Assembly (NCBI GenBank): GCA_902825905.1 | Contig: CADECO010000002.1 | Coordinates: 1 to 58,576, forward strand | Origin: an uncultured beta proteobacterium | Lineage (GTDB): Bacteria; Pseudomonadota; Gammaproteobacteria; Burkholderiales; SG8-39 | Reading direction: 5' to 3' | Length of the DNA: 58,576 nucleotides | In this document: positions 2,241 through 39,690 of the stretch, piece by piece | Layout of the letters: every line of letters begins with the position of its first letter | Numbering within the stretch: the first letter of the stretch is position 1 | Notes under the pieces: generated by a model | Database searches by the model: none | Seen by the model: only the letters and a program-made list of their open reading frames with translations | What the model was told of the DNA's origin: nothing | Made by a program: the position numbers and the translations under genes

Positions 2241-2666
2241 ATGGATACCAATGAAGTCCGCATTCGCGGCAACCTTGGCGCCGACCCGAAGGTGTTCAAC
2301 GAACCGAACCAGGAACCCTTCGCCGTCTTCGATATCGCCACCAACCTGCAATTCCGTTCTCGCAACGGCGAGCAAGTCGATCGCACCGAGTGGCATCACG
2401 TCGCTGCGTACGGCTGGCGCGCCGAGATCGCCAAGCACTTCACCAAAGGCATGAAGGTGCACATCGAGGGCAACCTGCGCACGCGCGAGTTCGATCAGCG
2501 CGATGGCAGGGCCAAGGCCACCGAGATCGTCGCGCTGGATCTGCACGAGGTGAAGCTCGCCCCGAAGGCCGCGCCGAGCGAGATTCGTGCAAACGTACCG
2601 ACGCGCGTCGATTCACCGAGCGCGCGGGCGCCCGCACCCGATCACCGCCAGCCCGCCTACATCTAG
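2241..2666 (+). CDS. ssb: Single-stranded DNA-binding protein
   Basis: NEVRIRGNLGADPKVF......FAVFDIATN....R..GEQVDRTEWHHVAAYGWRAEIAKHFTKGMKVHIEGNLRTREF is the canonical SSB OB-fold pattern (TEWH.V..F...AE....YL.KG..V.VEG.L..R.W). A Pro-rich tail follows. Confidence 0.9.
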   Translation: MDTNEVRIRGNLGADPKVFNEPNQEPFAVFDIATNLQFRSRNGEQVDRTEWHHVAAYGWRAEIAKHFTKGMKVHIEGNLRTREFDQRDGRAKATEIVALDLHEVKLAPKAAPSEIRANVPTRVDSPSARAPAPDHRQPAYI

Positions 2667-2736
2667 TTCGCTTCGCATCGCGCGGGGCTGCCCGCCCTGC
2701 GCACATAGCGTGGGCGGCCTCGCACCTGGAGGTTTC

Positions 2737-3588
2737 ATGCACACGCCAGACCCCGATCTCGGCCCGCGCTGTATCGAGGGCCAACCCGCATCGGCCTATC
2801 ACGCCGACCGCAGCGCCGTCTCAAGCTCGGCGCTCAAACAGATCCTGACTAGCCCGGCCCATTGTCGTCACTACCTGGACGAGGGTAGGGACGAGACGCC
2901 CGCCATGCTCACCGGCACGGTGCTGCATGCTGCGCTACTTGAGCCCGAGCGTTTTTCGTCCGAATTCGCGATCGTCCCTGCAGTGGATCGCCGCACCAAG
3001 GCCGGCAAGGAGCAGTGGACCGCGTTCTGCGCTGAGCATCAGGGCAAGACGCTGATTCGCCGCGAAGAGGCCGATCTCGTCGAACGCCTGCGTGCAGGGA
3101 TCGCCCGCCATCAGCGTGCAACGACCTTGCTCGATCTCCCCGGCAAAGCCGAGTTGTCGCTCTATTGGACCGATCCGCAAACCGGTGTTCGATTGAAAGC
3201 GCGCCCGGATCGGTTGTTATTCGCCCCGGCGCACATCCTGGTCGAGCTCAAGTCCACCCAGCGCGCCGATCGGTATCACTTCGAGAAGCGCATCGCCGAT
3301 CTCGACTACGACTTGTCCCTCGCGATGTATTGCGAGGGCGTTCAGCAAGTGTTCGGCGCAACGCCACGCCCGGTGCTTTTCGTCATAGAAGACAAGACCT
3401 TCGAGATCTGTCTCTACGAGCCTGATGCCGACCTGCTCGATACGGGCCACCGGCGCTTCCGTCACGCAGTGGAGCGCTACGCCCGTTGTCTCGAGGCCGA
3501 TCGCTGGCCCGGCTATCAACCTGACGGCGTGATCGAGCCCGTATCCCTACCGCGCTGGGCCAGCGCTCGCGCGGAGTTCGCCCTCTAG
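2737..3588 (+). CDS. PD-(D/E)XK exonuclease (RecE/exodeoxyribonuclease VIII-like, Cas4/RecB-like fold)
   Basis: I chose the internal ATG at 2737, which has an upstream GGAGG. The track ORF from 2587 overlaps the ssb 3' end in an Arg/Pro-rich shadow-like stretch. Motifs: GT.LH.ALLEP, KARPDRL, ILVELKST (D...ELK) and DYDLSLAMY. It sits next to recT. Confidence 0.75.
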   Translation: MHTPDPDLGPRCIEGQPASAYHADRSAVSSSALKQILTSPAHCRHYLDEGRDETPAMLTGTVLHAALLEPERFSSEFAIVPAVDRRTKAGKEQWTAFCAEHQGKTLIRREEADLVERLRAGIARHQRATTLLDLPGKAELSLYWTDPQTGVRLKARPDRLLFAPAHILVELKSTQRADRYHFEKRIADLDYDLSLAMYCEGVQQVFGATPRPVLFVIEDKTFEICLYEPDADLLDTGHRRFRHAVERYARCLEADRWPGYQPDGVIEPVSLPRWASARAEFAL

Positions 3589-3619
3589 CCCTTCAACCCA
3601 TTCAGATTCAGAGATCCCT

Positions 3620-4384
3620 ATGGACCCCAAAGACCTGCCGATTCAGGCAACCAGCTATTCGATTTTCATCAACATGGAAGCGTTCGCGAACGCGCAGCGC
3701 GTCGGCGCGCTCCTAGCCAAATCCACCCTTGTCCCCGATGCGTTTCGCGGCAAGCTCGAGAACTGCGTCATCGCCATCGAGTTGGCCGAGCGCGTGAAGA
3801 TGTCCCCGCTGATGGTCATGCAGCATCTAGCGGTGGTGAACGGCAAGCCCGGCTGGGACGCGCAGTTCGTCATCGCCAAGATCAACTCGTGCGGGCGATA
3901 TGAACCGCTGCGCTTCGTACTCGAAGGCGAGGGCGACGATCAGGGCTGTCATGCCTGGACCCGCGAAATCGGCTCATCGGAAAAGCTCACCGGCCCGCGC
4001 GTCACCTGGAAGATGGTGCGCGCCGAGGGCTGGGACACGAAGTCCGGCTCGAAGTGGAAGACCATGCCCGATGTCATGTTCAGCTACCGCGCGGCCAGCT
4101 TCTGGGGCAAGCGCTACTGCCCGGAGCTACTGCTCGGCATGCCATCGGCCGATGAGCTGGAGGACTTCACCAACGGCCCTCGCATCAAGGACATGGGAAA
4201 CGCCGAAGTCGTGCGCGATCCGGAAACGGACCTAAACGCGATGCTCGACCAAGCACGCGCCACGAACACCCCGAGCGATGCGAGATCTGCAGCAACTGAT
4301 ATCGCATCAGCACCCGGCGCGACGAAGCCAGCTGACGTGGTTCCCAACTCCCCGGGCGAGTTCGAGGGTCATCTGTTTGCATGA
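3620..4384 (+). CDS. recT: RecT-family single-strand annealing recombinase
   Basis: The core F.NAQRVGALLAKSTLVP..FRGK..NCVIAIELAERVKMSPLMVMQHL.VV.GKPGW.AQF.IA..N is RecT-like. It is paired with the exonuclease upstream. Confidence 0.85.
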   Translation: MDPKDLPIQATSYSIFINMEAFANAQRVGALLAKSTLVPDAFRGKLENCVIAIELAERVKMSPLMVMQHLAVVNGKPGWDAQFVIAKINSCGRYEPLRFVLEGEGDDQGCHAWTREIGSSEKLTGPRVTWKMVRAEGWDTKSGSKWKTMPDVMFSYRAASFWGKRYCPELLLGMPSADELEDFTNGPRIKDMGNAEVVRDPETDLNAMLDQARATNTPSDARSAATDIASAPGATKPADVVPNSPGEFEGHLFA

Positions 4385-4478
4385 GTGCGCGGTCTTGATG
4401 ATCGGCTAAGTGCCGAAGTGACCTGACGCCTTTCCCCCGCGCGACGGCACGCAACACGCCCGTTCGCGTTCCACACAA

Positions 4479-4528
4479 CCCCAAGCGGGGACCGGTTTCC
4501 CGCTTGGGGCCGGTCTTCGCTTTTCGTT
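4479..4528 (+). terminator. Rho-independent terminator after recT
   Basis: GC-rich hairpin CCCCAAGCGGGGA...TCCCGCTTGGGG (4479-4509) followed by the T-rich run CTTCGCTTTTCGTTTT. Confidence 0.6.
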
Positions 4529-4540
4529 TTGGAGCCCTTC

Positions 4541-5605
4541 ATGAAAAGCGGTCGTTCATTAGTTGACCTGGCCACGGAGCTCGAACGCCAACTCGCCAGC
4601 AAACTGGACCTTCTCGTTCCCACTCGCCATCTGGTCCATCGTACCGAGCCACAAGGTGATTGTCGTTTGGCGATTACCGAGCCCGGCGCGCACAACCATT
4701 ACGCAGTCACCGAGCTTGCACGGCGCCAGTTGGCTGACAAGCTCAAGATCCCGTTCCAGTACTTCGAGCGCATGCGCGCTGAGCAGCCAACGCTGCTCGA
4801 CAGCAACGTGAACACTTGGCTTGGCTCGGGCGAAGACGAGCGGCTGATGGTGCGCATGCTCGATGGTCGAGTGCGCGCAATCCTGTCCGACCGGTACCGC
4901 CGGCTCGACCACGTCGACCTGGCCGAGCACATCCTGCCGATCCTGCAGCGTTTGCCCGATGCACGCTTCGAATCGGTCGAGCTCACCGAGACGCGCATGT
5001 ATCTGAAGGTCGTCACGCCGCGCGTCGAAGCGGAGCTTGCGCCGGGCGATATCGCGCAGGCGGGTGTAGTGGTCACCAATTCCGAAGTCGGATGCGGCAC
5101 GCTCTCAGTGCAACCGCTGCTGTTTCGGCTGATCTGCAAGAACGGCCTGATCGCGCCCGATACCGCGCTTCGCAAAACGCACCTGGGGCGCGCGGTGTCC
5201 GTCGACGACTCGGGGGTGATCTACAAGGACGATACGGTCGAGGCCGAAGACAAAGCGCTGTTCCTCAAAGTGCGCGATGTGGTCGAGGCCGCAGTGTCGG
5301 AGGCGACATTCAAGCTGATAGCCGACAAGTTCAGGCGAACCAAGGCGATCAAGCTGATCGGCGATCCGGTGAAATCGATCGAGGTCCTCGCGCAGCGCTG
5401 GCCGTTGAGCAACGAGGAGCGGCGCGGCGTGCTGCGATCGCTGATCGAAACCGGCGACTTGACCGGGTTCGGTTTGGTGAACGCGGTGACGCACTACTCG
5501 CAGGATGTCGAGAACTACGATCGGGCGACTGAGCTCGAGGCGCTGGGTGGTCGGCTCGTTGAGCTGCCGGCCAAGGATTGGAAGGAGGTGGCGGAGGCGG
5601 TGTAG
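4541..5605 (+). CDS. DUF932 (phage/plasmid-like, ICE-associated) protein
   Basis: ...DRYRRLDHVDLAEHILPIL......F.SVELTETRMYLKVV.P...AEL.PGD....GVVVTNSEVGCGTLSV.PLLFRLICKNGLI matches my recollection of the DUF932/DUF945 family common on ICEs. I prefer the ATG at 4541 (GGAG 6 nt upstream) over the TTG at 4529, which lies inside the terminator T-run. Confidence 0.8.
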   Translation: MKSGRSLVDLATELERQLASKLDLLVPTRHLVHRTEPQGDCRLAITEPGAHNHYAVTELARRQLADKLKIPFQYFERMRAEQPTLLDSNVNTWLGSGEDERLMVRMLDGRVRAILSDRYRRLDHVDLAEHILPILQRLPDARFESVELTETRMYLKVVTPRVEAELAPGDIAQAGVVVTNSEVGCGTLSVQPLLFRLICKNGLIAPDTALRKTHLGRAVSVDDSGVIYKDDTVEAEDKALFLKVRDVVEAAVSEATFKLIADKFRRTKAIKLIGDPVKSIEVLAQRWPLSNEERRGVLRSLIETGDLTGFGLVNAVTHYSQDVENYDRATELEALGGRLVELPAKDWKEVAEAV

Positions 5606-5757: not shown

Positions 5758-6036
5758 ATGAAAGAGCCCCAGACCAGAACCGCGCGCCTCGAGGCGCGCC
5801 TAAGCCCAGATGTTCAAAGTGTGCTCAAGCGAGCAGCCGATTTGCAGGGCCGCTCGCTGAGCGATTTTGTCATCGCTGCAGCACATGACACGGCGATGCG
5901 AGTGATCGAACAGGCGGAAATTCTCCGATTGTCCCGATCCGACCAGGTTCGTTTTGCCAAGGCTTTGATCAATCCGCCAGCTCCTTCGGCGGCGCTCAAA
6001 CGAGCCCGCAAGCGTCACCAGAAACTGGTGGTCTAG
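5758..6036 (+). CDS. DUF1778/TacA-like RHH antitoxin
   Basis: ARLEARLSPDVQSVLKRAADLQGRSLSDFVIAAAHDTA..VIE matches the DUF1778 antitoxin pattern. It lies 3 nt upstream of a GNAT toxin gene. Confidence 0.85.
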   Translation: MKEPQTRTARLEARLSPDVQSVLKRAADLQGRSLSDFVIAAAHDTAMRVIEQAEILRLSRSDQVRFAKALINPPAPSAALKRARKRHQKLVV

Positions 6037-6039
6037 TAA

Positions 6040-6546
6040 GTGCGTGGGCCGTATCGCATCGACGCGCTGGCAGCCGGGCACGACCGCACGGGATTCAAAT
6101 GCGGGTCAGAGCCGCTCGACCGATACTTCAAAGAACTGGTCTCTCAAGATCTACGGCGAAACGTCGCAACATGCTTCGTCGCCGTTGACGTCGCATCCAG
6201 CTCGATCGCTGGCTACTACACGCTTTCTGCGGGCAGCGTTCCGCTCACGGGAATTCCGGTCGATCTTCGCAAGAAACTGCCACGCTACCCTTCAGTCCCC
6301 GTCGTTCGCATGGGGCGGTTAGCCGTCGACGAACGAGCGCGTGGCACTGGCCTTGGTGGTGCAATGATCATAGATGCCTTCGAGCGCATCCTCGCATCGG
6401 AGATCGGATGCTACGCGTTGCTGGTCGATGCGAAGGACGATAACGCGGTGGCCTTCTATCGGCACCTTGGCTTTCTTCACTTGGAAGGTGCGGACGACGT
6501 GTTGTTCCTGCCAATCGCGACGGGAAGAAAAGTTTTGCTCGGATAG
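6040..6546 (+). CDS. GNAT-family acetyltransferase toxin (TacT-like)
   Basis: F.CG.E.LD.YFK....QD.....A.CFV.....S.I.GYYTLSA.SV.........KLPRYP.VP...MGRLAVD.R..G.G.G..... matches GNAT toxins that partner DUF1778. It uses a GTG start 3 nt after the antitoxin stop. Confidence 0.85.
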   Translation: MRGPYRIDALAAGHDRTGFKCGSEPLDRYFKELVSQDLRRNVATCFVAVDVASSSIAGYYTLSAGSVPLTGIPVDLRKKLPRYPSVPVVRMGRLAVDERARGTGLGGAMIIDAFERILASEIGCYALLVDAKDDNAVAFYRHLGFLHLEGADDVLFLPIATGRKVLLG

Positions 6547-6874: not shown

Positions 6875-8164
6875 ATGAGCCGCAAGATTACGGCTGAGCC
6901 AGGGCGCAAACTCACGGTGTCTCGCAAGAATCAAGCGGCTTCGCGACGCAGCCGGACTGTTATATCCCTATTTACCGGCGCGGGTGGGCTCGACTTGGGA
7001 CTAGAAGTCGCTGGCTTCAATATCGCTGCATGCGTTGAAATTGATGTGGCATCGCGCGAAACGCTGCGCACAAATCGGCCCGCATGGAAGCTCGTCGAGC
7101 CAGGCGACATTCACAGAGTCAGCCCCGAGCAGGTCCTTTCTCATGCTGGTGTTGAGCGCCGTGGGGCCTGCGTCGTGAGCGGCGGGCCGCCGTGCCAGCC
7201 GTTTTCAAAGTCGGCAAACTGGGCGACCAGGGGATCGAGCGGCATGCTCGATCCGCGCTCCGCGACGCTGCTCGCTTACCTCAAGTTCGTCGACGCCGCG
7301 CTGCCTCGCGTGTTCCTTCTCGAAAACGTGCGAGGACTAAGCGCAGGCACCTCGCAAAACAGCGCGCTGCAGCCGCTACGCGACGAGATTGATGCTATTA
7401 ACCGCCGCAACGGCACGAGCTACAAAGCGCAGGTGGTGCACCTAAACGCCGCTGACTACGGCGTGCCCCAGATCAGAGAGCGCGTGTTCATCATCGCAAG
7501 CATCGACGGCCGTGCCTTTGAGGCGCCCGCGGCCACGCACGGCGACGATTACGGGCTGGAGCCGTACCGCTCGGCTTGGGACGCCATCGGTGACCTCGAC
7601 AAGCCCGAGTGGCCATCCGAGCTCAACCCAACGGGAAAATGGGCCGAGCTTCTTAAGAGCATCCCCGAGGGCAAGAACTACCTCTGGCACACACCACGCG
7701 GTGGGGGCCGACCGCTCTTCGGATGGCGCACGCGTTACTGGTCATTCCTGCTGAAGCTTTCGAAGTGCCAGCCGTCGTGGACTATTCAAGCGATTCCCGG
7801 TCCCGCTACTGGCCCGTTCCATTGGCGAAGTAGGCTGCTCTCGGTCGAAGAGCTTGCCCGCCTCCAAACGTTTCCCAAAGATTTCCGCTTCATAGGGGAT
7901 CGACGCTCCGCGCATCGGCAGATCGGCAACGCCGTACCTTGCGCACTTGGTGAACTTCTCGGGCTGGAGATACGTCGGCAGCTTCTTGATGACATCGAAG
8001 CATCTGGCACACTCTCGCTCATACCAAATCGTCGCAATGGCATGGCGCGCGCGCACCATACGGGGAAGGTTCCTTCGAGCTATCGAGCGCTTGAGGGAGC
8101 GCATCGAGACCACCCCGGGCCCGGGCGGGGACCAGGCAGAGTATGGACCGCGAAAGCAAAGTGA
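6875..8164 (+). CDS. dcm: DNA (cytosine-5)-methyltransferase
   Basis: All hallmark C5-MTase motifs are present: I (SLFTGAGGLDLG), IV (GGPPCQPFS), VI (LLENVRGL), VIII (QIRERVFI) and X (RQIGNAVP). Confidence 0.95.
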   Translation: MSRKITAEPGRKLTVSRKNQAASRRSRTVISLFTGAGGLDLGLEVAGFNIAACVEIDVASRETLRTNRPAWKLVEPGDIHRVSPEQVLSHAGVERRGACVVSGGPPCQPFSKSANWATRGSSGMLDPRSATLLAYLKFVDAALPRVFLLENVRGLSAGTSQNSALQPLRDEIDAINRRNGTSYKAQVVHLNAADYGVPQIRERVFIIASIDGRAFEAPAATHGDDYGLEPYRSAWDAIGDLDKPEWPSELNPTGKWAELLKSIPEGKNYLWHTPRGGGRPLFGWRTRYWSFLLKLSKCQPSWTIQAIPGPATGPFHWRSRLLSVEELARLQTFPKDFRFIGDRRSAHRQIGNAVPCALGELLGLEIRRQLLDDIEASGTLSLIPNRRNGMARAHHTGKVPSSYRALEGAHRDHPGPGRGPGRVWTAKAK

Positions 8165-9729
8165 TTACCGAAACCCCGCGGACAGTGCCGATTCGGCCCG
8201 AAGTGGCCATGTACGCCGCGTTCGCGCGACTAAATTACAAGCCCTGGTACGCGATCAGCGAGTTTGTCGACAACGCTGTACAGAGCGCGCTATCCAACAT
8301 GGATGCGCTCCGGGCCGCCGACCAGAACTTCCGCCTGAACGTTGAGATTGATATCGACGAGAATCACATTGAGATCCGCGACAACGCGGCGGGAATCTCC
8401 GTTCGCGACTACGCCCGCGCGTTTCTTCCAGCGTCGCCGCCCCCGGACACGAAAGGCCTCTCGGAGTTCGGCCTCGGGATGAAAGCCGCTGCAAGCTGGT
8501 TTGCCTCGCAGTGGTCGGTTCGTACGACCGCTCTCGGCGAGAACGTCGAGCGCGAGATCACCTTCGACATACCTACGATCGTCGCGAGCAATCGCGATCG
8601 GCTAGACGCAATCGAGCGCAGCGCCCATGCCTCCGATCACTACACTGTGTTGTCGCTCGCCAACCTGCACGTTCACCCGCGAGGAAGGACGGTCGGAAGG
8701 ATCAAGGACCACCTTCGAAGCATATACCGTGTTTTTTTGCGCGACCGGCTACTTGAACTTCGCGTGAACGGTGAAAGCCTGAGCTACGAGTCGCCGCCGA
8801 TCTTACACGCGCCCCACCATGCCACTCCCGACGGGTCACCGGTGGAGTGGCGCAAGGACTTCGATCTCGATCTGGGTGATGGACACCGCGTGCGCGGATG
8901 GGCTGCCATTCTCGCAAGGGCGAGCGTAACCAATGCCGGCTTCTCGATCTTTCGTCGTCGTCGGCTCATTCAGGGCAGCTATGGCGAGGGTTACCGGCCC
9001 GAAACAGTCTTTGGCAAGCCGAATAAGTTCGTCTACCAGCGGCTCATCGGTGAGCTGGAGGTTGAAGGCTTCGCGGTAAGTCACACGAAGGACGGCATCC
9101 AATGGGAAGATTGGGAGGATGACATCCTCACCTGGATCAAGGACAAGCTCGATTCGGAGCCACTGCCCTTACTTGATCAGGCTGCCAACTACCGGGCGCG
9201 CGCAGCAATTGACCGGGATGCCATCGGGGAGGCGACGCGTGACCTCAGGAACGCCATCACGCAGCACCTGCCCCCAATCGTTGATCGTCAGCTCAACACC
9301 CCGCCTGACGAGTCGCCCCTAGACGCGCAGCTTCCCCCGCCGCCTGCCGACGCCACGTCACTCCGAACCGAGCAGGTCAGGCTCAATCTTGAGCACTCGC
9401 ACCGGAAATGGATCGTCGATATGGAGCTTTTGACCCATGGAACAGTTGACTCCTGGTATGAGCTTGCCGAACACGAAACGACTGGCGATACGACACGCAT
9501 ACAAATCAGGGTCAACCTCGGGCACCCCTTCATGGTGCGGTTCGTCTCACCTGACGGCGATGAGCTCGTGCCGTTCACCCGCTTGGCCGCCGCGCTTGCT
9601 ATCGCCGAGATCACAGCGCGAGAGCAAGGCGTCCGACAGGCCGGCACGCTGCGAATCAACCTTAACCAGATTCTACGGTCCGCGCTCTCTGGGCCGGTGC
9701 AGCACCAGGAGATCAAACATGGCAGCTGA
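8143..9729 (+). CDS. GHKL-superfamily ATPase (HATPase_c_3 / MORC-like)
   Basis: Bergerat-fold N-box ISEFVDNAVQSA and G1-box IEIRDNAAGIS, then GLSEFGLGMK (G2-like). It overlaps the dcm 3' end by 22 nt. A later start (the M at about 8209) is possible. Confidence 0.8.
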   Translation: MDRESKVITETPRTVPIRPEVAMYAAFARLNYKPWYAISEFVDNAVQSALSNMDALRAADQNFRLNVEIDIDENHIEIRDNAAGISVRDYARAFLPASPPPDTKGLSEFGLGMKAAASWFASQWSVRTTALGENVEREITFDIPTIVASNRDRLDAIERSAHASDHYTVLSLANLHVHPRGRTVGRIKDHLRSIYRVFLRDRLLELRVNGESLSYESPPILHAPHHATPDGSPVEWRKDFDLDLGDGHRVRGWAAILARASVTNAGFSIFRRRRLIQGSYGEGYRPETVFGKPNKFVYQRLIGELEVEGFAVSHTKDGIQWEDWEDDILTWIKDKLDSEPLPLLDQAANYRARAAIDRDAIGEATRDLRNAITQHLPPIVDRQLNTPPDESPLDAQLPPPPADATSLRTEQVRLNLEHSHRKWIVDMELLTHGTVDSWYELAEHETTGDTTRIQIRVNLGHPFMVRFVSPDGDELVPFTRLAAALAIAEITAREQGVRQAGTLRINLNQILRSALSGPVQHQEIKHGS

Positions 9730-11872
9730 CGCTGATCACATCGAGGTCCTTCCGCCAGGCGACGAGCCGGGGCGTTGGCAGCCGGTCGTAGGCGATGTGA
9801 CCACGCAGCTTCGCGAGTATTTCCTCGATAGCCGCCTCTTGCCTACAAGGGAAGGCGCTGATCGCGTTATCGCCGAAGCACATCACGTGTTGCAACGATG
9901 CAACTCCCCGAGGAGCAACGCCCCGCGACGAATCGGGCTTGTATGCGGGTATGTCCAGAGCGGAAAGACCGCCTCCATGACGGCGGTCGCCGCTCTTGCC
10001 CGCGACAACGGTTTTCGAATCATCCTCCTCCTTGCGGGAGTTACGACCAACCTCGTCATCCAGAATCGTGATCGCATGGAGACGCAGCTTCGCGAGGCCG
10101 CGCCGGAATGGACGTGGCTCATGGTTTCGAATCCGCGCCTCCCGAACGGCTTGCCACCGATCGAGGGGCTCGTGCAGGAGTGGCGCAGCGAACACTACGA
10201 CGAGCGCGACCGGCGAACGCTCTTCATCACGGTCATGAAGAACCACCGTCATTTGGCCAATTTGGCCGCGCTGCTCTCACGCGTCGACCTGCGGGGTATC
10301 CCAGCCATCATCTTCGATGACGAGGCCGATCAAGCCAGCCTCAATACGCGGCCGAATGACCCGCTAGCCAGCACGACCTACCGGAAGATCGAAGAACTCC
10401 GCGATACAGTGCCGACTCACACGTACTTGCAATACACGGCTACGCCGCAGGCACCGCTTCTCATTACGCGGATCGATTCGCTCTCTGCCGACTTCGCGGA
10501 ACTCGTATCTCCTGGCGACGGCTATACCGGTGGCCAAGAGTTCTTCCGAGGACCGCTTCCCCTCGTCGAAACGATTCCTCCGGCGGACATCTTTCCCGAC
10601 GGGCAGCTACTGGTTGAGCCACCTGAGAGTATGGTACGTGCGATGCAAGTTTTCTTTACGGGAGTCGCGGCTGGCAGGCTCCAACCGGTGAGATCGCACC
10701 GCTCTATGCTCTTGCACCCGTCACGGGCCACTGATACGCATCGTCGTTATCACGACTGGGCAAACGCGCTCAAGGATATTTGGCATCGGACCCTCCTCGA
10801 TCACAACGAGCCTGATCGGCCGGAGCTCATCGAGGAGTTTCGCCGAGCCCATACCGACCTCGCCGGCACCCTCGACAACTTGCCCCCTTTCGATCAGCTC
10901 CTTGCGAGACTTCCAGTGGCAATCAACCAGACGGCGATCACACTCGTCAACTCGGTCGATGGACACGAGGTGCCATGGCAGAACGGATACTCACATATTC
11001 TCGTCGGCGGGGAAAAGCTCGGTCGCGGCTACACTGTAAAGGGCCTAACTGTGACGTACATGCCGAGATCTCCGGGCGGGTGGACAGCGGACACGATCCA
11101 GCAGCGAGCGCGATTCTTCGGTTATCACAGGGATTATCTCGGCTACTGCAGGGTGTACCTACACCAAGAAGTCCGCACCGCTTACGTTTCCTACGTGACG
11201 CATGAGGATGACATGCGGGCTCGGCTCACCGAGCACAGCGGAAGGCCACTCCAGGAGTGGCGCCGGATGTTCTACTTGGACGAACGGCTCGCTCCCACGC
11301 GACGAAACATCCTCGCGAGCCCCTGGATGCGCGCGAGCCTTGATCGCGACGGATGGTTCGCACCAAAAGGTCCCCAAAACGCACCGGAGGACGGTCGCCA
11401 CAACGCAAGGCTTCTCAGCCGTCTCGACGGGCTCGATTTCACACCGCATGAAGAATATCCGCGCCATTCCTACGCAGTCATGTACCTGCGGGACCTCTAC
11501 GAGCAGGTGCTCGTTCCGTTGTCGTATCTGCATGAAAATGACGCCTTGGGGTTATGCGTCGTGAACTGCAATATCAAGACGCTGATCGAGAACGACAACG
11601 ATGCACGGTGTCTCGTGTATCGGATGGATGCGGGACAGCCCCCTCGCGTTCGCCAGCTAACCAATGGGCTCATTCCGCAAGTGTTCCAAGGTCGGTCCAG
11701 CGCGGGAGCAGCTTCGTATCCGGGCGATCGGGCATTTTTCGATCAAACGATGACCACCGTGCAGTTGCACAACCTTCACCTGCAAGAGGGTAACAACCAT
11801 ATCGGTGACTTCCTGATCATCGCCATCAGGCTGGGTCGTCACAAAGCGCTCTTAGTTCACGACGATCCGTAA
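9719..11872 (+). CDS. Z1-domain-type P-loop NTPase (SF2 helicase-like)
   Basis: I chose the ATG at 9719, which overlaps the upstream stop by 11 nt; the track ORF from 9437 runs in a shadow frame of the GHKL gene. It has Walker A (CGYVQSGKTAS) and a DEAD-like Walker B (IIFDDEADQAS). The long C-terminal region contains GEKLGRGYTVKGL, as I recall for Z1 proteins. Confidence 0.8.
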   Translation: MAADADHIEVLPPGDEPGRWQPVVGDVTTQLREYFLDSRLLPTREGADRVIAEAHHVLQRCNSPRSNAPRRIGLVCGYVQSGKTASMTAVAALARDNGFRIILLLAGVTTNLVIQNRDRMETQLREAAPEWTWLMVSNPRLPNGLPPIEGLVQEWRSEHYDERDRRTLFITVMKNHRHLANLAALLSRVDLRGIPAIIFDDEADQASLNTRPNDPLASTTYRKIEELRDTVPTHTYLQYTATPQAPLLITRIDSLSADFAELVSPGDGYTGGQEFFRGPLPLVETIPPADIFPDGQLLVEPPESMVRAMQVFFTGVAAGRLQPVRSHRSMLLHPSRATDTHRRYHDWANALKDIWHRTLLDHNEPDRPELIEEFRRAHTDLAGTLDNLPPFDQLLARLPVAINQTAITLVNSVDGHEVPWQNGYSHILVGGEKLGRGYTVKGLTVTYMPRSPGGWTADTIQQRARFFGYHRDYLGYCRVYLHQEVRTAYVSYVTHEDDMRARLTEHSGRPLQEWRRMFYLDERLAPTRRNILASPWMRASLDRDGWFAPKGPQNAPEDGRHNARLLSRLDGLDFTPHEEYPRHSYAVMYLRDLYEQVLVPLSYLHENDALGLCVVNCNIKTLIENDNDARCLVYRMDAGQPPRVRQLTNGLIPQVFQGRSSAGAASYPGDRAFFDQTMTTVQLHNLHLQEGNNHIGDFLIIAIRLGRHKALLVHDDP

Positions 11873-11875
11873 GAG

Positions 11876-12871
11876 ATGCACGACCTCGCCACGCTGTTCC
11901 GTTCACTCCCGGCCATCGTCGGCTCCGACGACTGCTATGCCGTGCAGCCCGTTGGTACGCGAGAGCGGTACCGGATTGGCCGCGACGCCGTAGGCAATCC
12001 TGCGCTCCTCATCGCAACTGAGCCTGCAACCCAGCGGGCGTCGGCCTTGCCGCTCGAGTTTTCAAATCTTTCGTTTCGACCACGCTGTCAGTGCCGGGTA
12101 AGGCAAGACGCGTTACCTGACGTTATCCAAACATTGGCGGTGCTGAAGTGCACGACCGACGACGCAGCGCTCCGCGAGTACTTTCTCCGCTCTCTATCGG
12201 GTGCGCTCGACGTGCTGCCTGACGTCCCCACAGAGCAGACCCTGATTGAGGCTGTGTTGAGGCTCGTCGAATTGTTCCGTGCGCTTGAGGCACCGCCTCG
12301 GAAGTCGCTCCAGGGGCTGTGGTGCGAACTCTTCTTGATATCGAGGTCTACTCAGATTCGTCAAGCGGCCCTTGCCTGGCACAGCGATCCGATAGCCCTC
12401 TTCGATTTCACCGCTGGTACTGATCGCTTAGAGGTCAAGTCAGCAGTGGGTGGAATTCGCCGACACCACTTCAGCCTTCAGCAGCTCACACCTCCCAATG
12501 GGGTTTGCGCCGTGGTCGCATCCTTCCTACTTGAAGAAAGCGGCGGCGGATTATCCATCGCCGCACTGTGGGACGAGATCGCCGGCCGGCGGGAGCTAAC
12601 CACCGAGGCCAAGAACCGCCTGTTGCATGTGCTTACGATTGCCTTGGGCCGCGATTGGCGAAAGGCCAATCGGGTTGCTTTCGATCCCGAGATTGCACTG
12701 CGCGATCTACGATTGTACGAGGCGACCGCGATTCCAAAGGTCTCCCTGAGCATCCCTGTAGAAGTGAGTGAGGTCCATTTCTGCTCGGAACTCACCGATG
12801 TTCCTACAATCTCTCTTGCGGCGGCAGCGCGTAGGGGAGGCCTCTTTCAAGCCCTCTTTCAGCGGGCGTAG
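11876..12871 (+). CDS. PD-(D/E)XK-motif protein (DUF4420-like putative nuclease)
   Basis: A candidate nuclease core is ALFDFTAGTDRLEVKSAVG (D...EVK). The size and position (after Z1, before vsr) match the 'PD-(D/E)XK motif protein' I recall from this neighbourhood. The start lies 3 nt after the Z1 stop. Confidence 0.6.
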   Translation: MHDLATLFRSLPAIVGSDDCYAVQPVGTRERYRIGRDAVGNPALLIATEPATQRASALPLEFSNLSFRPRCQCRVRQDALPDVIQTLAVLKCTTDDAALREYFLRSLSGALDVLPDVPTEQTLIEAVLRLVELFRALEAPPRKSLQGLWCELFLISRSTQIRQAALAWHSDPIALFDFTAGTDRLEVKSAVGGIRRHHFSLQQLTPPNGVCAVVASFLLEESGGGLSIAALWDEIAGRRELTTEAKNRLLHVLTIALGRDWRKANRVAFDPEIALRDLRLYEATAIPKVSLSIPVEVSEVHFCSELTDVPTISLAAAARRGGLFQALFQRA

Positions 12872-13353
12872 TGAAGCCACCTCCGAGATTTTCTGGTTTC
12901 ACACCCAAGAACGCTCGCGCGTCTGCCGCGGCGCGGGGCGCAAGCAAGAAAGCAGGAACAAGCCCCGAGCTAACGCTCCGAGCAGCCATTTGGCGAAGAG
13001 GCCACCGGTTCAGAACAAATAGGGCTGATCTTCCCGGCTGCCCTGACATCGTGTTCGCCAGACCACGCATTGCGGTCTTCGTCGATGGCGACTTCTGGCA
13101 TGGCAACAACTGGAGCGCGCGAAAAGAAAAGCTGGTCCGTGGGCACAACGCTCAGTATTGGATTGCCAAGATCGAAGCCAACATGACTCGCGATGTTACG
13201 CGCACTCAGCAGTTACGCGCCGAGGGATGGAGAGTCATTCGTGTATGGGAATCGCAGATTGCGCGTGATCTCGACCGTGTGATTCGGGATATTGAGTGCG
13301 ATATTCGCTCCGAACGTTCTGCGGCAAGGCCTGCGCGGTCAATTGCACCTTGA
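12871..13353 (+). CDS. vsr: Very short patch repair endonuclease
   Basis: TSPELTLRAAIWRRGHRFR....LPGCPDIVFARPRIAVFVDGDFWHG...........YW..KI..N..RD......L...GW.V.RVWE is the canonical Vsr signature. The GTG start overlaps the preceding stop by 1 nt. Confidence 0.9.
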   Translation: MKPPPRFSGFTPKNARASAAARGASKKAGTSPELTLRAAIWRRGHRFRTNRADLPGCPDIVFARPRIAVFVDGDFWHGNNWSARKEKLVRGHNAQYWIAKIEANMTRDVTRTQQLRAEGWRVIRVWESQIARDLDRVIRDIECDIRSERSAARPARSIAP

Positions 13354-23942: not shown

Positions 23943-24250
23943 GCGAGGGGACGAGCGCGATGCGTGTGGGCGAGTTCGTCGGTTGGAGCGCGGTGGTCGG
24001 CATGTCGATCTGGGCCGGCAGCATCGCGATCGCCGATCGCGTGGACAAACCGGTCGCGGTGTGCCGCCCGCTCGCATGGGGTGCCGAATTGCTGCGCGAT
24101 GCGCTCGCCGCGATCAAGCCGGGCAGTTTTCTGGACGCGACCGGGGACTCGATCCGCGTGGGCACCGCGCGTGCGTGCCTCGCGTACGTCGGCAACTACC
24201 TCCAAGTGACCCAGTCCTCGCCGCCGCAACGGGACGGAATGGCCCGATGA
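23939..24250 (+). CDS. Hypothetical small membrane protein
   Basis: The GTG start overlaps the upstream stop. One TM helix (VGWSAVVGMSIWAGSIAIA). Its stop overlaps the next start (ATGA). Confidence 0.4.
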   Translation: MSEGTSAMRVGEFVGWSAVVGMSIWAGSIAIADRVDKPVAVCRPLAWGAELLRDALAAIKPGSFLDATGDSIRVGTARACLAYVGNYLQVTQSSPPQRDGMAR

Positions 24251-25590
24251 TCACGCCACAGAATCCGATCACGATGTGGCTGCGCGTCGGCTACTTGTGG
24301 CTGTGGCTAGTCGGGGTAACGTTCTTCGCCTGCTACGCGACGCTTGGCAATGAATCGCTCGCGCGTTTCGCGACCGACGCGCTCGGCGCCGAAGCGTTCG
24401 CGATGCTGAGCGAACGTGGCGCGCTCAAGCTTTACACCGCGGCGGTCGCGGCCAACGTGCACGAAGTGCTCCCGTTTCTTGCACTGGGTGCAGCGCTCGG
24501 CGCGCTGTGCCGCCTGATCGATTGGTCGCGCCGCTTCTTCAAGAGGCGCGCCGCCGCGCGGGTGAACGTCGTCACGGATCGGTTCGGTGGCCGCGTCATC
24601 ATGCATCAAGCGGCGCTCGAGCACGATCCCAACGCCGCCATGCCGCTGTTGCGCCTGAGCAAGCGCGAACCCGTGCCTGCCGGCGCATCACCGATCGAGC
24701 GCGAGGTCTTAGCGCTACTCGCGGCGCACCCAGAGATCCCGGCCGATCCCGACGGCGTGCACGGCGTGTCGCTCTTCGACCATAGTCTGAACACGTGGGA
24801 ACGCGCCTGTACTCAGCATGGCGCGGGATCGCTGGTGGCCACGCTCTCGCTCTGTCATGACCTGGGCAAGCTGCTCGCTTACGTACCCGACGCAGACGGT
24901 GACTATCGACGCATCGCCATCCATCAGCCGCTCGCCTTGCAATTGGTGCGCCGATTGCCGGCGTTCGCGCAGCTTGATGCACCCGCGCGTGACCGTTTCA
25001 TCCGCTTGCTCACCGCGCTGGTGACCGGTGCCATTCCGATCGATACCACGGACGAGGACCGCGCGATCCTGCGCGCATGCAAAGGTGCTGACTATGCCGC
25101 GACCGGCGCCGAGCGCGCTGCGCAAGAAGAAGAGGAACGCGCGGCGACCGATCCATCACAAGTGGCGAGCCTGGTGCGCACAGCGCTCCCCTCCCTGCTG
25201 CAAGCGCTGAACGTCAATCGCTGCCACGACCGGAGCGTGCGGCCCGAGGCGATCTATTTGCCGGAGAAGAATCGCCTGTTGCTGCCGCTTGCCAGTTTGC
25301 GCAAGCGCATTCCGAGCGTACTTCCGGCGGAGATCGAGCTGGGCATCGATCTGGCCGTACCCGAGAAGCGCGCGAAACAGGCGAACGCGTTCGTGTTGGC
25401 GGTCGCGCGGGCGGTGCTCGATCTCGACACCGTCTTCGAGGGCGCGAGCGCCGACGATGGGCTGTTCATGATGCGCAGCGGGCATTTCTACGAACCGAAT
25501 GTCGTCGTCGTCCGCGCCGAAGGCTTCGCCGATTCGCTAATCAAGCAATGGGGGATGTGGAGCTATGAGATCGAGCTGGTCAAGCAGTAG
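24247..25590 (+). CDS. Membrane-anchored HD-domain protein, possibly related to MobH (TraI_2)-type relaxase HD modules
   Basis: I chose the ATG at 24247; the track ORF from 23983 overlaps two small genes in an Arg-rich shadow frame. The N-terminus has 2-3 TM helices. Then HPEIPADPDGVHGVSLFDHSLNTWE ... LSLCHDLGKLLAY resembles the H..GGLL.HSLE ... LLHDLGK pattern of HD phosphohydrolases and MobH relaxases. Confidence 0.55.
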   Translation: MITPQNPITMWLRVGYLWLWLVGVTFFACYATLGNESLARFATDALGAEAFAMLSERGALKLYTAAVAANVHEVLPFLALGAALGALCRLIDWSRRFFKRRAAARVNVVTDRFGGRVIMHQAALEHDPNAAMPLLRLSKREPVPAGASPIEREVLALLAAHPEIPADPDGVHGVSLFDHSLNTWERACTQHGAGSLVATLSLCHDLGKLLAYVPDADGDYRRIAIHQPLALQLVRRLPAFAQLDAPARDRFIRLLTALVTGAIPIDTTDEDRAILRACKGADYAATGAERAAQEEEERAATDPSQVASLVRTALPSLLQALNVNRCHDRSVRPEAIYLPEKNRLLLPLASLRKRIPSVLPAEIELGIDLAVPEKRAKQANAFVLAVARAVLDLDTVFEGASADDGLFMMRSGHFYEPNVVVVRAEGFADSLIKQWGMWSYEIELVKQ

Positions 25591-27886: not shown

Positions 27887-29059
27887 ATGAAATTCCCCAT
27901 CGTGCGACGCCTGTTGCGCACGCCCGCGCCCGGGCGCCTGTGGCTTGCGATCCAGCAGAAGCAACAGGCGCCGAGCTTCTGGGAGGTTGCGCAGGACGCG
28001 GTACGCGAGATCGAACAGCTGCCCGACGGTGCGTGGCCGATTCTGTCCATCTCAGAAGACGATCTGCGCGTCGCCACGGCGAAACCCGTGAGCGGCAAGC
28101 GTGCCAAGAGCCTGATTCGCCAGCAGTGCGGCCAGCCCGCGCGCGTGATCAATCAATCGGCGCATGGCGCGATCTACGGGCGACCGCTGATCGCGATGAC
28201 CGATGGCTTTGCCGCGGTGCCGGCAGCGCTCTTGGTCGATCAGCTCCTCGTCGAGCGCGGTTGGCCGGATGCGCCGTTCATCGCGGGTTTCTTGCTGTCG
28301 GCAGGGGAGAGCCACAACGAGATTCTCGCTCTCTGGGCCGGCACGCCGCGTGGGGAGCTGGGCGGCATCCAGTTCACCGAGAACGCGCAGCAAGCCGAGC
28401 AGATCGTCGATGCGTTCTGCGCCACGCATGCGATCGACGCGAACGAATCCAACGTACTCCTGTTCCAGGTCGAGGAGCTACTCGCTGCGGTCGAGCGCTT
28501 TGCCGATCGCTTAGAACCCTATCCGGACTACGACGATTGGTACGGCATGCCGGTGCAGCGGCTATGGTCGGGCATCGCGGGGGCATCGGCGCTCAGCGCG
28601 ATCGGTACGGTTGCCGCGCTCGGCGTGCTGTTCGTACAGGGTCAGATGATGCAGACCGAGCGCGAGCGGGCCGCGGCGCGTGCCTCGCAATCGCGCCAGA
28701 CGACGGTTAACGCGTTCGTCGGCCATCTACCCACCGTGGTCGAGCGCAGCAGCGTGGATCACCGCGCGCTGGCCGCTAACGCGCGCGCGATCTATGTACC
28801 CGGCGGCTGGGTGATGCTCCAGGCCAACGCCGAGGCGCATCGACTTCGGCTCACTTTGCAGATCGAACCGCCGCAGACCCATCAAATCGATGTGCTCACG
28901 GTGAACACCATGCCGGGGTCGTCGTTCGAGGCAGCACGGTCGCGCAAGGTGTCGGGACGGTTGCCGCAGGTAGGGTTGTCAGGGGGAGGCAATGAGATCC
29001 ATTTCGATTACGCGTTGCAAGCAGCTAACGCTCGTCTGCTTGGCTATCTCGATCGCTAG
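27887..29059 (+). CDS. PilO-like (R64 type / PilO2) pilus biogenesis protein
   Basis: The call rests on position (secretin, this gene, small TM protein, ATPase), size (390 aa) and one central TM helix (WSGIAGASALSAIGTVAALGVLFV). Sequence similarity could not be verified by eye. Confidence 0.5.
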   Translation: MKFPIVRRLLRTPAPGRLWLAIQQKQQAPSFWEVAQDAVREIEQLPDGAWPILSISEDDLRVATAKPVSGKRAKSLIRQQCGQPARVINQSAHGAIYGRPLIAMTDGFAAVPAALLVDQLLVERGWPDAPFIAGFLLSAGESHNEILALWAGTPRGELGGIQFTENAQQAEQIVDAFCATHAIDANESNVLLFQVEELLAAVERFADRLEPYPDYDDWYGMPVQRLWSGIAGASALSAIGTVAALGVLFVQGQMMQTERERAAARASQSRQTTVNAFVGHLPTVVERSSVDHRALAANARAIYVPGGWVMLQANAEAHRLRLTLQIEPPQTHQIDVLTVNTMPGSSFEAARSRKVSGRLPQVGLSGGGNEIHFDYALQAANARLLGYLDR

Positions 29060-38239: not shown

Positions 38240-39690
38240 GACGGCCGCCAAGCCTCCGAAGTGTTGTCGACTTGAAGAGCACGCTCGTCGCGATGGCACT
38301 CGCGCTGATGGTATTGACATCGATGACGATCGAGGCCGCGCCGGGTCAGTTCAATCCGCGCTGGGTACCGGTACGCGTGCCGGCGGGCGCGGTGGTCGAT
38401 GTCCCGACCGAGAACTGGACCAACATTGCGTCGATGGCCAACACGGGTGGCGGCATGCCCGATATTCGCCTCCTGCAGGGCCAGCGGTGGATCGTGTTCG
38501 GCCGCGACGAGATCGGCATGCTCGGCCTGGAATCGGTGCAGATGAGCGCGGCGATCAAGCAACTCGCCGCTCCCGTGGTGCAGGTGCTCGCGCATTACTC
38601 GGCGGAGAACGCACGGCTTCGCATTCATCTCGTCCGCTTGGAGCGCCGACCCGATGGACGCGTGTATCTCTCCACGGGAGATTTCACGCCACATCACGGC
38701 GAGCTTTATCGCGCGTACCGGCAGTTCCTTACTCCAGCTGAGCGCGCGGCGGGGCGCGAAGGCTACAACCCGTTTCGCCGCTTCCGCGGCGCCAACGATG
38801 ATCCGGTCTTCTACAACATTGCCCCGGACGCAGCGCTGGTGGCGATCGGGCACGCCATGCGAATCCATCGCGCCGCCACGGCGTGGCTCGCCATGGCGCA
38901 GCAGCGGTTCGATGTGCGCACCGAATCACGGGGCAATCTGTTTCGCCGGACGGTGACCACCATCGTAGAGGGCTACGTGCGCCCGCGCTGGTTTCTGGTT
39001 GCGCCGGTGCAGGTTTCCCCTGAAGGCGGCCTGTCGGCACAGATCTGCGTCGATCCGTCGCACGTCGTGCGCAACCCCGCGAACGGCGCCACCACGTGTG
39101 ATGCCGCGGAGCATGTTGCGCATGCTGGTGTCGTCGCATCCGAATGGACGGGCGGCAATCTGCCTGAAGCGGAGCAGATGCTCGATCGCTGGGAGCAGAC
39201 CGATCGGGGGTTCACCGTATTCACCTACGCGCTGGCCGCCTCAGGCCTTCTCAATGCGTCGGCAACCAACAGCTACGCGCTGATTAATACGGTGTTCGGA
39301 TCGGGCGGATCGCTCACGCAGGCACAGGACGGGTTTCTGGGCTCTACGGGCGATGGCCACCTGAGCGCGAGCGCGCCAGCGAGTGAACAGCAGCGGACGA
39401 TGAATCGACGTGTGGCCGAACAACACATCACGCCGACACCCGATGGCGGGCTGGCGCAGACGCGCCGGCTTTACACCGGCAATTGTGTGCGCTCTGCGTC
39501 GGGCGCTGCATGTATCGCAGCGGGTCAGGACCCCGGGATGGTGAGCCGCGTCGATGGCTACGCCGAACGGAGCACGTCGCCCGAGATCGCCGTGCGCTAT
39601 CTCGCCTGTCGGGCAGCAGGCTGGCGGGGCGGGGCGTTGCAGCAGTGTGCTGCGCGATGGCGATCGCGAGTGGTCGGGGCGGCGCAGTGA
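38236..39690 (+). CDS. Secreted protein of unknown function
   Basis: I chose the ATG at 38236, which overlaps the upstream stop (ATGA). Signal MRRPPSLRSVVDLKSTLVAMALALMVLTSMTIEAAP. I recognise no family. Confidence 0.55.
   Translation: MRRPPSLRSVVDLKSTLVAMALALMVLTSMTIEAAPGQFNPRWVPVRVPAGAVVDVPTENWTNIASMANTGGGMPDIRLLQGQRWIVFGRDEIGMLGLESVQMSAAIKQLAAPVVQVLAHYSAENARLRIHLVRLERRPDGRVYLSTGDFTPHHGELYRAYRQFLTPAERAAGREGYNPFRRFRGANDDPVFYNIAPDAALVAIGHAMRIHRAATAWLAMAQQRFDVRTESRGNLFRRTVTTIVEGYVRPRWFLVAPVQVSPEGGLSAQICVDPSHVVRNPANGATTCDAAEHVAHAGVVASEWTGGNLPEAEQMLDRWEQTDRGFTVFTYALAASGLLNASATNSYALINTVFGSGGSLTQAQDGFLGSTGDGHLSASAPASEQQRTMNRRVAEQHITPTPDGGLAQTRRLYTGNCVRSASGAACIAAGQDPGMVSRVDGYAERSTSPEIAVRYLACRAAGWRGGALQQCAARWRSRVVGAAQ

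Follow-up and report, generated by a model that had tools for sequence, protein, structure and literature searches.

This report concerns a five-gene operon that occupies positions 6875 to 13353 of contig CADECO010000002.1 (assembly GCA_902825905.1), from an uncultured beta proteobacterium; the whole stretch of DNA that we analysed, 58,576 nucleotides (nt) in length, is referred to below as the window. We consider it probable that the operon encodes a multi-subunit, ATP-dependent restriction-modification (R-M) system of the type described as MORC plus Z1 helicase plus novel restriction-endonuclease (RE)-fold nuclease, and that the system is cargo of an island, adjoining a tRNA-Met gene, which resembles an integrative and conjugative element (ICE). 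The original prediction, which was made from the sequence of the window without database searches, had proposed that a Dcm-type methyltransferase marks self DNA and that GHKL, Z1 and nuclease proteins form an ATP-dependent effector. As a predicted function, that reading is supported by the presence of a C5 methyltransferase gene in 29 of 30 informative relatives of the locus and by the homology of its putative motor to that of the restriction enzymes NgoAVII and CglI. The five open reading frames (ORFs), with the lengths of their products in amino acids (aa), are as follows.

6875-8164, + strand: ORF1, C5 cytosine DNA methyltransferase, 429 aa; PF00145, TIGR00675
8143-9729, + strand: ORF2, prokaryotic MORC-type GHKL ATPase, 528 aa; HATPase_c_3
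9719-11872, + strand: ORF3, DEAD-Z1 helicase-like ATPase, 717 aa; Z1 PF10593
11876-12871, + strand: ORF4, DUF4420 protein, predicted PD-(D/E)XK, 331 aa; PF14390
12871-13353, + strand: ORF5, Vsr very-short-patch (T:G mismatch) repair endonuclease, 160 aa, GTG start; TIGR00632, PF03852

The operon and the families of its products

The five genes form one intact, tightly coupled unit that is under purifying selection. They lie on the same strand, as had been proposed, and each of their junctions could be read directly off the sequence. ORF1 (stop codon at 8162-8164) and ORF2 (ATG at 8143) overlap by 22 nt, and ORF2 (stop codon at 9727-9729) and ORF3 (ATG at 9719) by 11 nt; a gap of 3 nt separates the ORF3 stop codon (11870-11872) from the ORF4 ATG at 11876, and base 12871 serves both as the last base of the ORF4 TAG and as the first base of the ORF5 GTG, for an overlap of 1 nt. 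The sequence GAGGAG, a Shine-Dalgarno element, is present upstream of the ORF1 ATG at 6875. The mechanically derived ORF of gene 3 starts at 9437. Homologues 714-717 aa in length begin to align at the ATG at 9719, so that this position, which was also that of the original prediction, is the right start. The GC content of the operon, 0.59-0.62, is the same as that of its surroundings. When the genes were compared with a related copy (locus L009), the products of which are 76-91% identical in amino acid sequence to those of the window, the ratio of nonsynonymous to synonymous substitution rates (dN/dS) was 0.11-0.25 for each of the five (0.135 for ORF1 and 0.25 for ORF5).

The family assignments originally made for the five proteins, namely Dcm, GHKL ATPase, Z1 protein, a protein with a D...EVK core and Vsr, agree with the family models that we matched, and the motifs on which they were based fall on invariant columns of family alignments that comprised 32-48 homologues per protein. 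Profile searches of ORF2, ORF3 and ORF4 returned HATPase_c_3, Z1 and DUF4420, respectively, exactly as had been predicted.

Biochemical characterisation of a Z1 motor exists only for CglI and NgoAVII, which are ATP-dependent restriction enzymes of R2H2 composition (PMC4267653, PMC5861437), and ORF3 is, by sequence comparison, homologous to their DEAD-Z1 translocase subunit. In a BLASTP alignment, aa 45-532 of ORF3 were 26% identical to the H/N protein of Neisseria gonorrhoeae NgoAVII (E 3e-37), and the two proteins have in common the motifs VQSGKT, DDEADxASLNT, TATPQ, GRG and ADTxxQxxRxFGY. ORF3 matched Z1 (PF10593) at 5.1e-35 and, in PADLOC, the REBASE-derived 'Type II helicase domain protein' model (Helicase_II) at 4.5e-59. 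Its motifs include Walker A (GYVQSGKT, aa 77-84), Walker B (FDDEADQAS, aa 199-207), QYTATPQAPLLI (aa 238-249), GGEKLGRGYT (aa 430-439) and, on invariant alignment columns, ADTIQQRARFFGY (aa 457-469), which conforms to the Z1-domain signature DThhQXuRhFG. From about aa 533 to aa 717, ORF3 has a family-specific C-terminal domain; BLASTP gave no alignment of aa 533-717 to the NgoAVII H/N subunit's C-terminal domain, and neither single-sequence nor homologue-profile searches of the Protein Data Bank (PDB) with ORF3 found any chain, the solved CglI C-domain included.

ORF1 is, as judged by its sequence, a C5 DNA methyltransferase of the Dcm type, with motifs I, IV (PC), VI (ENV), VIII and X present and a score above a curated cut-off (TIGR00675, 130 bits against 100.65). 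It matched PF00145 (DNA_methylase) at 3.1e-45 and 155 bits and, in PADLOC, many Type II, DruM and DrmMII methyltransferase models. Motif I is FTGAGGLDLG (aa 33-42) and motif IV, with the catalytic Cys, is GGPPCQPFS (aa 103-111); these are followed by ENV (aa 150-152), QIRERVF (aa 199-205) and QIGNAVP (aa 349-355), and the variable target-recognition region (TRD) extends from about aa 206 to aa 318.

ORF5 likewise has the sequence characters of a Vsr endonuclease: its score against TIGR00632 (1.1e-34, 119.3 bits) lies above the curated cut-off of 97.85, it matched PF03852 at 1.3e-19 as well as the Vsr model of PADLOC, and the catalytic D and the FWH motif are present (PDIVF, aa 58-62; FVDGDFWHG, aa 70-78). 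The vsr gene (12871-13353) is not called in an NCBI record of identical sequence (L097; GCA_902825825.1, CADECJ010000016.1), nor in 2 of the 4 Logan contigs shown (L010 and L011), which are also identical in sequence; an antisense ORF of 105 aa located downstream is called in its place. The public record thus misses a gene whose product passes the curated Vsr cut-off.

ORF2 matched HATPase_c_3 at 2.2e-10 and contains the GHKL motifs in order: the N-box EFVDNAVQS (aa 40-48), the G1 box IRDNAAGIS (aa 78-86) and the G2 box GLSEFGLGMK (aa 105-114). Among 35 aligned homologues, residues E40, D43, N44, D80, G84, G105, G110, G112 and K114 are invariant. The transducer/S5 domain includes the sequence GFSIFRRRRLI (aa 266-276), of which G266, F270, R271, R272, R274 and L275 are invariant in the same homologues; this sequence conforms to the GhXhhpXXRhl motif that separates true MORCs from other GHKL proteins (PMC2292703). 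The sequence HTKDG (aa 314-318) is also invariant and plausibly provides the transducer-domain lysine, and a C-terminal region, about aa 400-528, lies beyond the GHKL and transducer/S5 motifs. An AlphaFold2 (AF2) model of ORF2 (predicted local distance difference test, pLDDT, 79) fits a clamp ATPase composed of GHKL and transducer domains. With this model, Foldseek matched the N and M domains of Hsp90/TRAP1 at ~1e-14 and the ATPase of mouse MORC3 (5ix2_B) at an E-value of 5e-13, the latter having the best TM-score (0.55) and the lowest root-mean-square deviation (4.7 Å) among the matches shown. Single-sequence and hidden Markov model profile searches of PDB sequences gave no match between ORF2 and a MORC, so that the relation is visible at the level of motif and fold only.

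ORF4 matched DUF4420 (PF14390) at 1.7e-20, and on the basis of its motif and modelled topology we predict that it is a PD-(D/E)XK nuclease. Residues E151, D177, E186 and K188, which make up an E-D-ExK motif, are invariant in 48 homologues. In the AF2 model (pLDDT 91.9, predicted TM-score 0.82), a helix carries E151, a strand has D177 at its start and the next strand carries E186 and K188, which is the PD-(D/E)XK arrangement. This core is preceded by a helical linker and, at about aa 20-92, by a fast-evolving, beta-rich N-terminal domain in which C73 and C92 are invariant. Foldseek rows for influenza PA and for PabI, obtained at E-values of ~1, were not used.

Conservation of the cassette and variant loci

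With ORF4 as the query we retrieved 80 loci from metagenomes and 6 from species-representative genomes, and we took as informative the 30 loci that had more than 6.5 kb of sequence upstream of the DUF4420 gene. The order methyltransferase-MORC-Z1-DUF4420 is kept in 29 of these 30 loci, which represent at least six phyla; the Z1 gene and the GHKL gene are each found, in the same order, in 29/30. A C5 methyltransferase was detectable by BLASTP in 28 loci, and the 29th is L087, where a divergent PF00145 gene is located directly upstream of the MORC gene (the same is seen in L072, which lies outside the set of 30). Linkage of the methyltransferase to the cassette is near-obligatory. Vsr is present in 16 of the informative loci, where its gene is found either downstream, on one strand or the other, or upstream of the methyltransferase gene.

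Conservation of the gene order in unrelated genomes, one of the checks named in the original prediction, is well documented. All five genes are present in a Spirochaetota metagenome-assembled genome (MAG), and the cassette was also found in four Bacteroidota (Tenacibaculum, Patiriisocius, Galbibacter and a Bacteroidales MAG), in Myxococcota, in a delta-proteobacterial MAG and on many metagenome contigs. Further sources are MAGs of Syntrophobacteraceae, Thermoanaerobaculia and Entotheonellia and one genome of 5.6 Mb. On a plasmid of Rathayibacter festucae (Actinomycetota) the genes are annotated as dcm, ATP-binding protein, Z1 domain-containing protein and PD-(D/E)XK motif protein. The exact proteins of the operon recur, with the same flanking genes, in NCBI assembly GCA_902825825.1 and in several assemblies derived from the Sequence Read Archive. 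At 50% identity the DUF4420 family as a whole fell into 1,659 clusters, counted at E ≤ 1e-3 in a set of 1.84 billion representatives. A megablast search of the operon against the PLSDB plasmids gave no match.

Several loci depart from the common plan. In Corallococcus terminator (Myxococcota; L008 5355-12414, RAVZ01000011.1) the MORC protein is 833 aa long with an N-terminal MTaX1 domain (PF20296), and the C5 methyltransferase gene closes the cassette at its 3' end instead of opening it at the 5' end. On a Hymenobacter cellulosilyticus plasmid (NZ_CP095048; L095 1883-8036), dcm, the ATPase gene and a shorter Z1 gene are followed by genes for a hypothetical protein and an HNH endonuclease, which replace DUF4420 and suggest that the nuclease module is exchangeable; DUF262 and HEPN genes adjoin this variant cassette. 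A scaffold from ENA ERZ1758309 (L100 1660-5719) encodes a 690-aa protein with both DNA_methylase and Z1 hits, then DUF4420 and Vsr, with no MORC gene and with Mrr_cat and SRA-HNH genes in its flanks; it may have arisen by deletion and fusion, or may be an artefact of scaffolding. Of the loci with ample DNA upstream, L027 (7974-8930) alone has a DUF4420 homologue next to which no Z1, GHKL or Dcm gene was detected. Finally, the MORC or DUF4420 gene is split into two frames in L002 (6311-7850 and 9989-10988) and in L014, L037, L043 and L056; in such MAG and metagenome copies the splits could be either long-read indel errors or genuine pseudogenisation.

Proposed mechanism, genomic setting and alternative readings

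The scheme that we favour is inferred, in all of its activities, from what was observed, namely the protein families, the conservation of catalytic residues, the coupling of the genes, the linkage to a methyltransferase and the homology of the motor. ORF1 would methylate its site on host DNA and so provide the self mark, and Vsr would repair the T:G mismatches that arise by deamination of 5-methylcytosine, limiting the mutational cost of this base. The effector proteins would assemble on unmethylated incoming DNA. There, the MORC dimer may be a DNA clamp gated by ATP, capturing or looping the DNA and licensing the motor and nuclease; the DEAD-Z1 motor, ORF3, would hydrolyse ATP and translocate along double-stranded DNA as the CglI motor does, thereby delivering or activating the nuclease; and the DUF4420 PD-(D/E)XK subunit, ORF4, would make the cut. 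The target could be read by the methyltransferase itself, by a C-terminal domain (that of ORF2 or that of ORF3) or by the variable beta domain at the N terminus of DUF4420.

A number of results weigh against this interpretation. A scan for promoter and terminator consensus sequences found no promoter-like site, and terminator-like sites only at chance level. No PADLOC model matched ORF2 or ORF4, even at an E-value of 10, so that current defence finders would give at most a generic methyltransferase or helicase hit for the locus. The confident model of ORF4 had no significant match, and none to a nuclease, when compared by Foldseek with PDB and BFVD, and single-sequence and profile searches of PDB sequences with ORF4 found no nuclease either; because of this lack of a structural match to a known nuclease, the nuclease assignment rests on Pfam and the literature (Steczkiewicz et al. 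2012) together with motif and topology. No sequence-recognition domain was identified in ORF2, ORF3 or ORF4 through Pfam, Foldseek of ORF4 or PDB profile searches. We also compared identity in the methyltransferase TRD with identity in 30-aa windows of the MORC, Z1 and DUF4420 proteins over 435 locus pairs, and the result was dominated by phylogenetic structure; its only strong residual signal came from the first 30 aa of MORC, a stretch that lies across the 3' end of the methyltransferase gene and is sensitive to the start codon that is called. Lastly, the searchable literature (open-access papers and bioRxiv) held no experiment on a MORC-Z1-DUF4420 architecture, and restriction activity, methylation sensitivity and subunit stoichiometry are therefore all predictions. 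To that extent the description of the system as uncharacterised, which formed part of the original prediction, stands.

It is possible, but somewhat unlikely, that the methyltransferase itself is the target-recognition subunit, in the manner of Type I, Type III and BREX-like systems, and that DUF4420, MORC and Z1 have no reader of their own. The system would then be a four-component, methyltransferase-dependent enzyme and not one in which, as in CglI, the R subunit reads and the H subunit moves. That these searches found no recognisable DNA-reading domain in ORF2-4 is in keeping with this arrangement, and so is the position of the methyltransferase gene, which is almost always directly upstream of the MORC gene and is translationally coupled to it (by the 22-nt overlap in the window); yet in Corallococcus it lies at the 3' end of the cassette, and adjacency to MORC is thus not obligatory. 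Very different lineages of C5 methyltransferase (27% identity, over the N-terminal half only) are paired with clearly homologous effectors. In the four Bacteroidota loci the methyltransferases have diverged (identity of 0.60 in the core and 0.50 in the TRD) while identities of the effectors are 0.7-0.9 (0.86-0.90 for MORC and Z1), and none of the effector segments shows a parallel loss of identity; this comparison is not decisive, since two TRDs at 50% identity may nevertheless have one specificity. The presumed TRD of ORF1 (aa 219-318, positions 7529-7828) shows identities of 0.74-0.85 to those of L007 and L015, against 0.53-0.59 for the catalytic core; within the clade of the window (L007, L009 and L015 compared) the TRD is thus more conserved than the core, the reverse of the usual pattern. 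Against the methyltransferase as reader, it is the nuclease subunit that reads the site in CglI and NgoAVII, and variability of the kind that a reader might show is seen at the N terminus of DUF4420: in pairwise comparisons its N-terminal domain and the first 60 aa of ORF3 were the fastest-evolving effector segments. The methyltransferase could be the specificity subunit, and the identity comparisons are weak hints in that direction.

A second alternative concerns the setting of the operon, which is cargo of an ICE-like island. The operon is about 6 kb from a tRNA-Met gene (542-616), which is at the left edge of the island. The island setting and the neighbouring toxin-antitoxin pair had both been noted originally, and our searches bear them out. 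Immediately upstream of the operon, as neighbours and not as members, are:

5758-6036, + strand: TacA-like antitoxin; PF08681 TacA1, 1.2e-24
6040-6546, + strand: GNAT acetyltransferase toxin; Acetyltransf_1, 3e-08

In an otherwise identical metagenome copy (L010 1228-2016) the GNAT protein is called as 78 aa instead of 168 aa, and the toxin there may be disrupted. Just upstream of this pair, at 2587-5605, is a recombination module that encodes a DUF3799/PD-(D/E)XK (YqaJ-like) exonuclease, RecT and a DUF932 protein; no ORF of the size of an integrase is present between the tRNA-Met gene and 2587. Downstream of the operon, a long same-strand block (13846-39690) of ICE-type transfer and type-IV-pilus genes encodes a PilT-like T2SSE ATPase, Toprim, TraU, a secretin, a 754-aa T2SSE ATPase and T2SSF, and includes several large ORFs with no Pfam hit, for example 23983-25590, 27887-29059 and 36407-39690. 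No second copy of the tRNA-Met 3' end, as a candidate attR, is present in the 58.6-kb window, which indicates that the island either runs past the window or uses another site.

Such a setting would suit a system selected mainly for post-segregational killing, in which loss of the ICE-like island would lead to dilution of the methylation and to attack on the chromosome by a long-lived nuclease, so that the operon stabilises the island and does not primarily defend against phage. R-M systems behave as addiction modules. The operon is on a mobile island beside a TacA/GNAT pair and ICE type-IV-pilus and transfer genes, and relatives are found on plasmids; but many homologous cassettes are in chromosomal contexts with no obvious mobile genes, and the same biochemistry would serve both ends, so that defence is not excluded by addiction. 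We think it rather unlikely that addiction has been the main selected role.

It is improbable that MORC, Z1 and DUF4420 form a methylation-independent anti-phage effector like mzaABCDE, with Dcm and Vsr as a separate passenger module. The mzaABCDE system, which includes GHKL, Z1 and nuclease proteins, does protect against T4, and its MzaD protein cuts DNA in vitro (bioRxiv 10.1101/2022.06.16.496414). The matches of ORF2 to the MzaB model (NF041932, 20.7 bits) and of ORF3 to the MzaC model (NF041933, 91 bits) are, however, weak and far under the respective cut-offs of 850 and 1500 bits, and no AIPR gene is nearby. A passenger would also not be expected to occur in 29/30 loci, in a fixed order and often with an overlap of the MORC gene, as the C5 methyltransferase gene does. 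A role outside defence, in DNA repair, transposition or epigenetic or nucleoid organisation, is very improbable: DUF4420 is tabulated as a 'putative transposase' (Steczkiewicz et al. 2012, PMC3424549), eukaryotic MORCs are described as compacting and silencing methylated chromatin, and Vsr is a repair enzyme, but the cassette has no terminal repeats or transposase features, is patchy in distribution and horizontally transferred, is found beside the defence genes Mrr, SRA-HNH, DUF262 and HEPN, and encodes both an invariant nuclease motif and a homologue of a restriction-enzyme motor.

Within the R-M interpretation we put forward, tentatively and with considerable doubt, a more specific proposal, which is that the cassette represents a distinct class of restriction system in which an ancestral MORC clamp would trap or loop unmethylated DNA and gate a DEAD-Z1 translocase-nuclease, with two different ATPases cooperating and a C5 methyltransferase possibly reading the sequence. 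The architecture is widespread, with ~1,660 DUF4420 clusters and occurrences in several phyla, on plasmids and on ICEs, and the cassette holds a prokaryotic MORC, from which the eukaryotic MORC chromatin ATPases are thought to derive. If the proposal were true, the compact operon would be a first tractable model for the original action of MORC on methylated and unmethylated DNA, and would have a direct bearing on the means by which eukaryotic MORCs link DNA methylation with silencing. For such work the locus offers a complete, intact 6.5-kb copy of the five genes, of which identical copies occur in several independent samples. To a specialist, the existence of the locus will be unsurprising, and its value lies in the mechanism of a predicted kind of system.

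Comparison with known systems

Among characterised systems, CglI/NgoAVII and mzaABCDE are the nearest to the locus. The mzaABCDE (Mza) anti-phage system, which was reportedly described by Gao et al. in 2020, resembles the present locus in combining a Z1 protein, MzaC, with an ATPase of the MutL/GHKL type (MzaB) and a nuclease (MzaD). By their scores, ORF2 and ORF3 are weak matches to MzaB and MzaC and are not equivalogs of these, and ORF4 had no match to MzaD in PADLOC or NCBIfam at E-values up to 10. There is no AIPR protein (MzaE) or MzaA in the window's cassette, the flanks of which are the TacA/GNAT pair and the PilT-like ATPase gene. The mzaABCDE system is not known to contain a methyltransferase or Vsr. 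The mzaA product is given as a sigma factor by Miller et al. (PMC9523054).

With the Dcm-Vsr pair of Escherichia coli, the locus shares a C5 methyltransferase and an adjacent, overlapping vsr gene, the products of both being above NCBIfam cut-offs. It differs from that pair in that three effector genes stand between dcm and vsr, and in that ORF1, at 16.9 bits where NF007772 requires 710, falls outside the subfamily of E. coli Dcm. The Bacillus subtilis BsuMI system (ydiR/ydiS/ydjA), which was considered as a possible characterised Z1/MORC system, was rejected, being according to the literature a McrBC/LlaI-like enzyme.

CglI and NgoAVII share with the locus a homologous DEAD-Z1 motor in the H subunit and linkage to a C5 methyltransferase, and by analogy ATP-driven translocation on double-stranded DNA, coupled to cleavage, would be expected in both. 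The CglI H subunit is a double-stranded DNA translocase that consumes ~170 ATP/s, with cleavage occurring on collision, and the site GCCGC is read by the PLD/B3 R subunit (PMC5861437). The differences lie in the other components. The nuclease of CglI and NgoAVII belongs to the PLD family and is fused to a B3-like reader, whereas the counterpart here is a DUF4420 PD-(D/E)XK protein with an unrelated N-terminal domain, and none of ORF1-5 matched the RE_NgoFVII-type R subunit (PLD + B3). A further ATP-dependent restriction enzyme of the CglI/NgoAVII kind is BceSIV. The C-terminal DNA-binding domain of the H subunit has no counterpart that we could detect in ORF3 aa 533-717. Finally, CglI and NgoAVII have three genes in the order M-R-H and lack a MORC, and the Neisseria NgoAVII locus consists in addition to the motor of a C5 methyltransferase and a RE_NgoFVII/RE_NgoFVII_C PLD + B3 protein, with no MORC and no DUF4420; here a MORC gene is placed between M and H, and is kept there in 29/30 loci.

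Two published predictions come closer. In Miller et al. 2022 (Nat Commun 13:5731; PMC9523054), a 'putative defense system' is built around a cytosine methyltransferase, a Z1 protein and a PD-(D/E)XK protein of the DUF4420 family (given in print as DUF4220). Its type I is associated with DNA-repair endonucleases, and a second type is ~20% identical to mzaBCDE; the system is a prediction, is widely distributed taxonomically and is described as absent from PADLOC and DefenseFinder. Type I has the same core as the present locus (Z1, DUF4420 and cytosine methyltransferase, associated with a repair endonuclease), to which it may be equivalent. It differs in having six genes and, as an example, a Z1 protein of 925 aa as against 717 aa here, and the authors mention MORC with the AIPR-containing type II and not with type I.

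The closest counterpart is one of the three kinds of prokaryotic MORC operon described by Iyer, Abhiman & Aravind 2008 (Biol Direct 3:8; PMC2292703). Their third type combines a MORC with a distinct superfamily II helicase, which has a C-terminal domain with the DThhQXuRhFG signature (Z1), and with a novel RE-fold protein (NRE) that has an E-D-ExK motif; these neighbourhoods often carry cytosine methylases and Vsr and were read as R-M systems. The original prediction had stated that comparative genomics pointed to R-M-like systems composed of GHKL/MORC ATPases, SF2-like NTPases and PD-(D/E)XK proteins, and the complete layout, frequent Dcm and Vsr included, is indeed in that paper. Because the kind has been described twice before, in 2008 and in 2022, the novelty of the locus is modest and had been overstated. 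Every element that defines the third type is present in the operon of the window, namely the GHKL and MORC S5 motifs, ADTIQQRARFFGY, an E-D-ExK protein, a cytosine methylase and Vsr; the patchy distribution across phyla is likewise the same, and we found no structural difference. The description of the third type is purely computational, and what sets the present case apart is its carriage on an ICE-like island. The locus thus adds another member to a kind of system that comparative genomics had already predicted.

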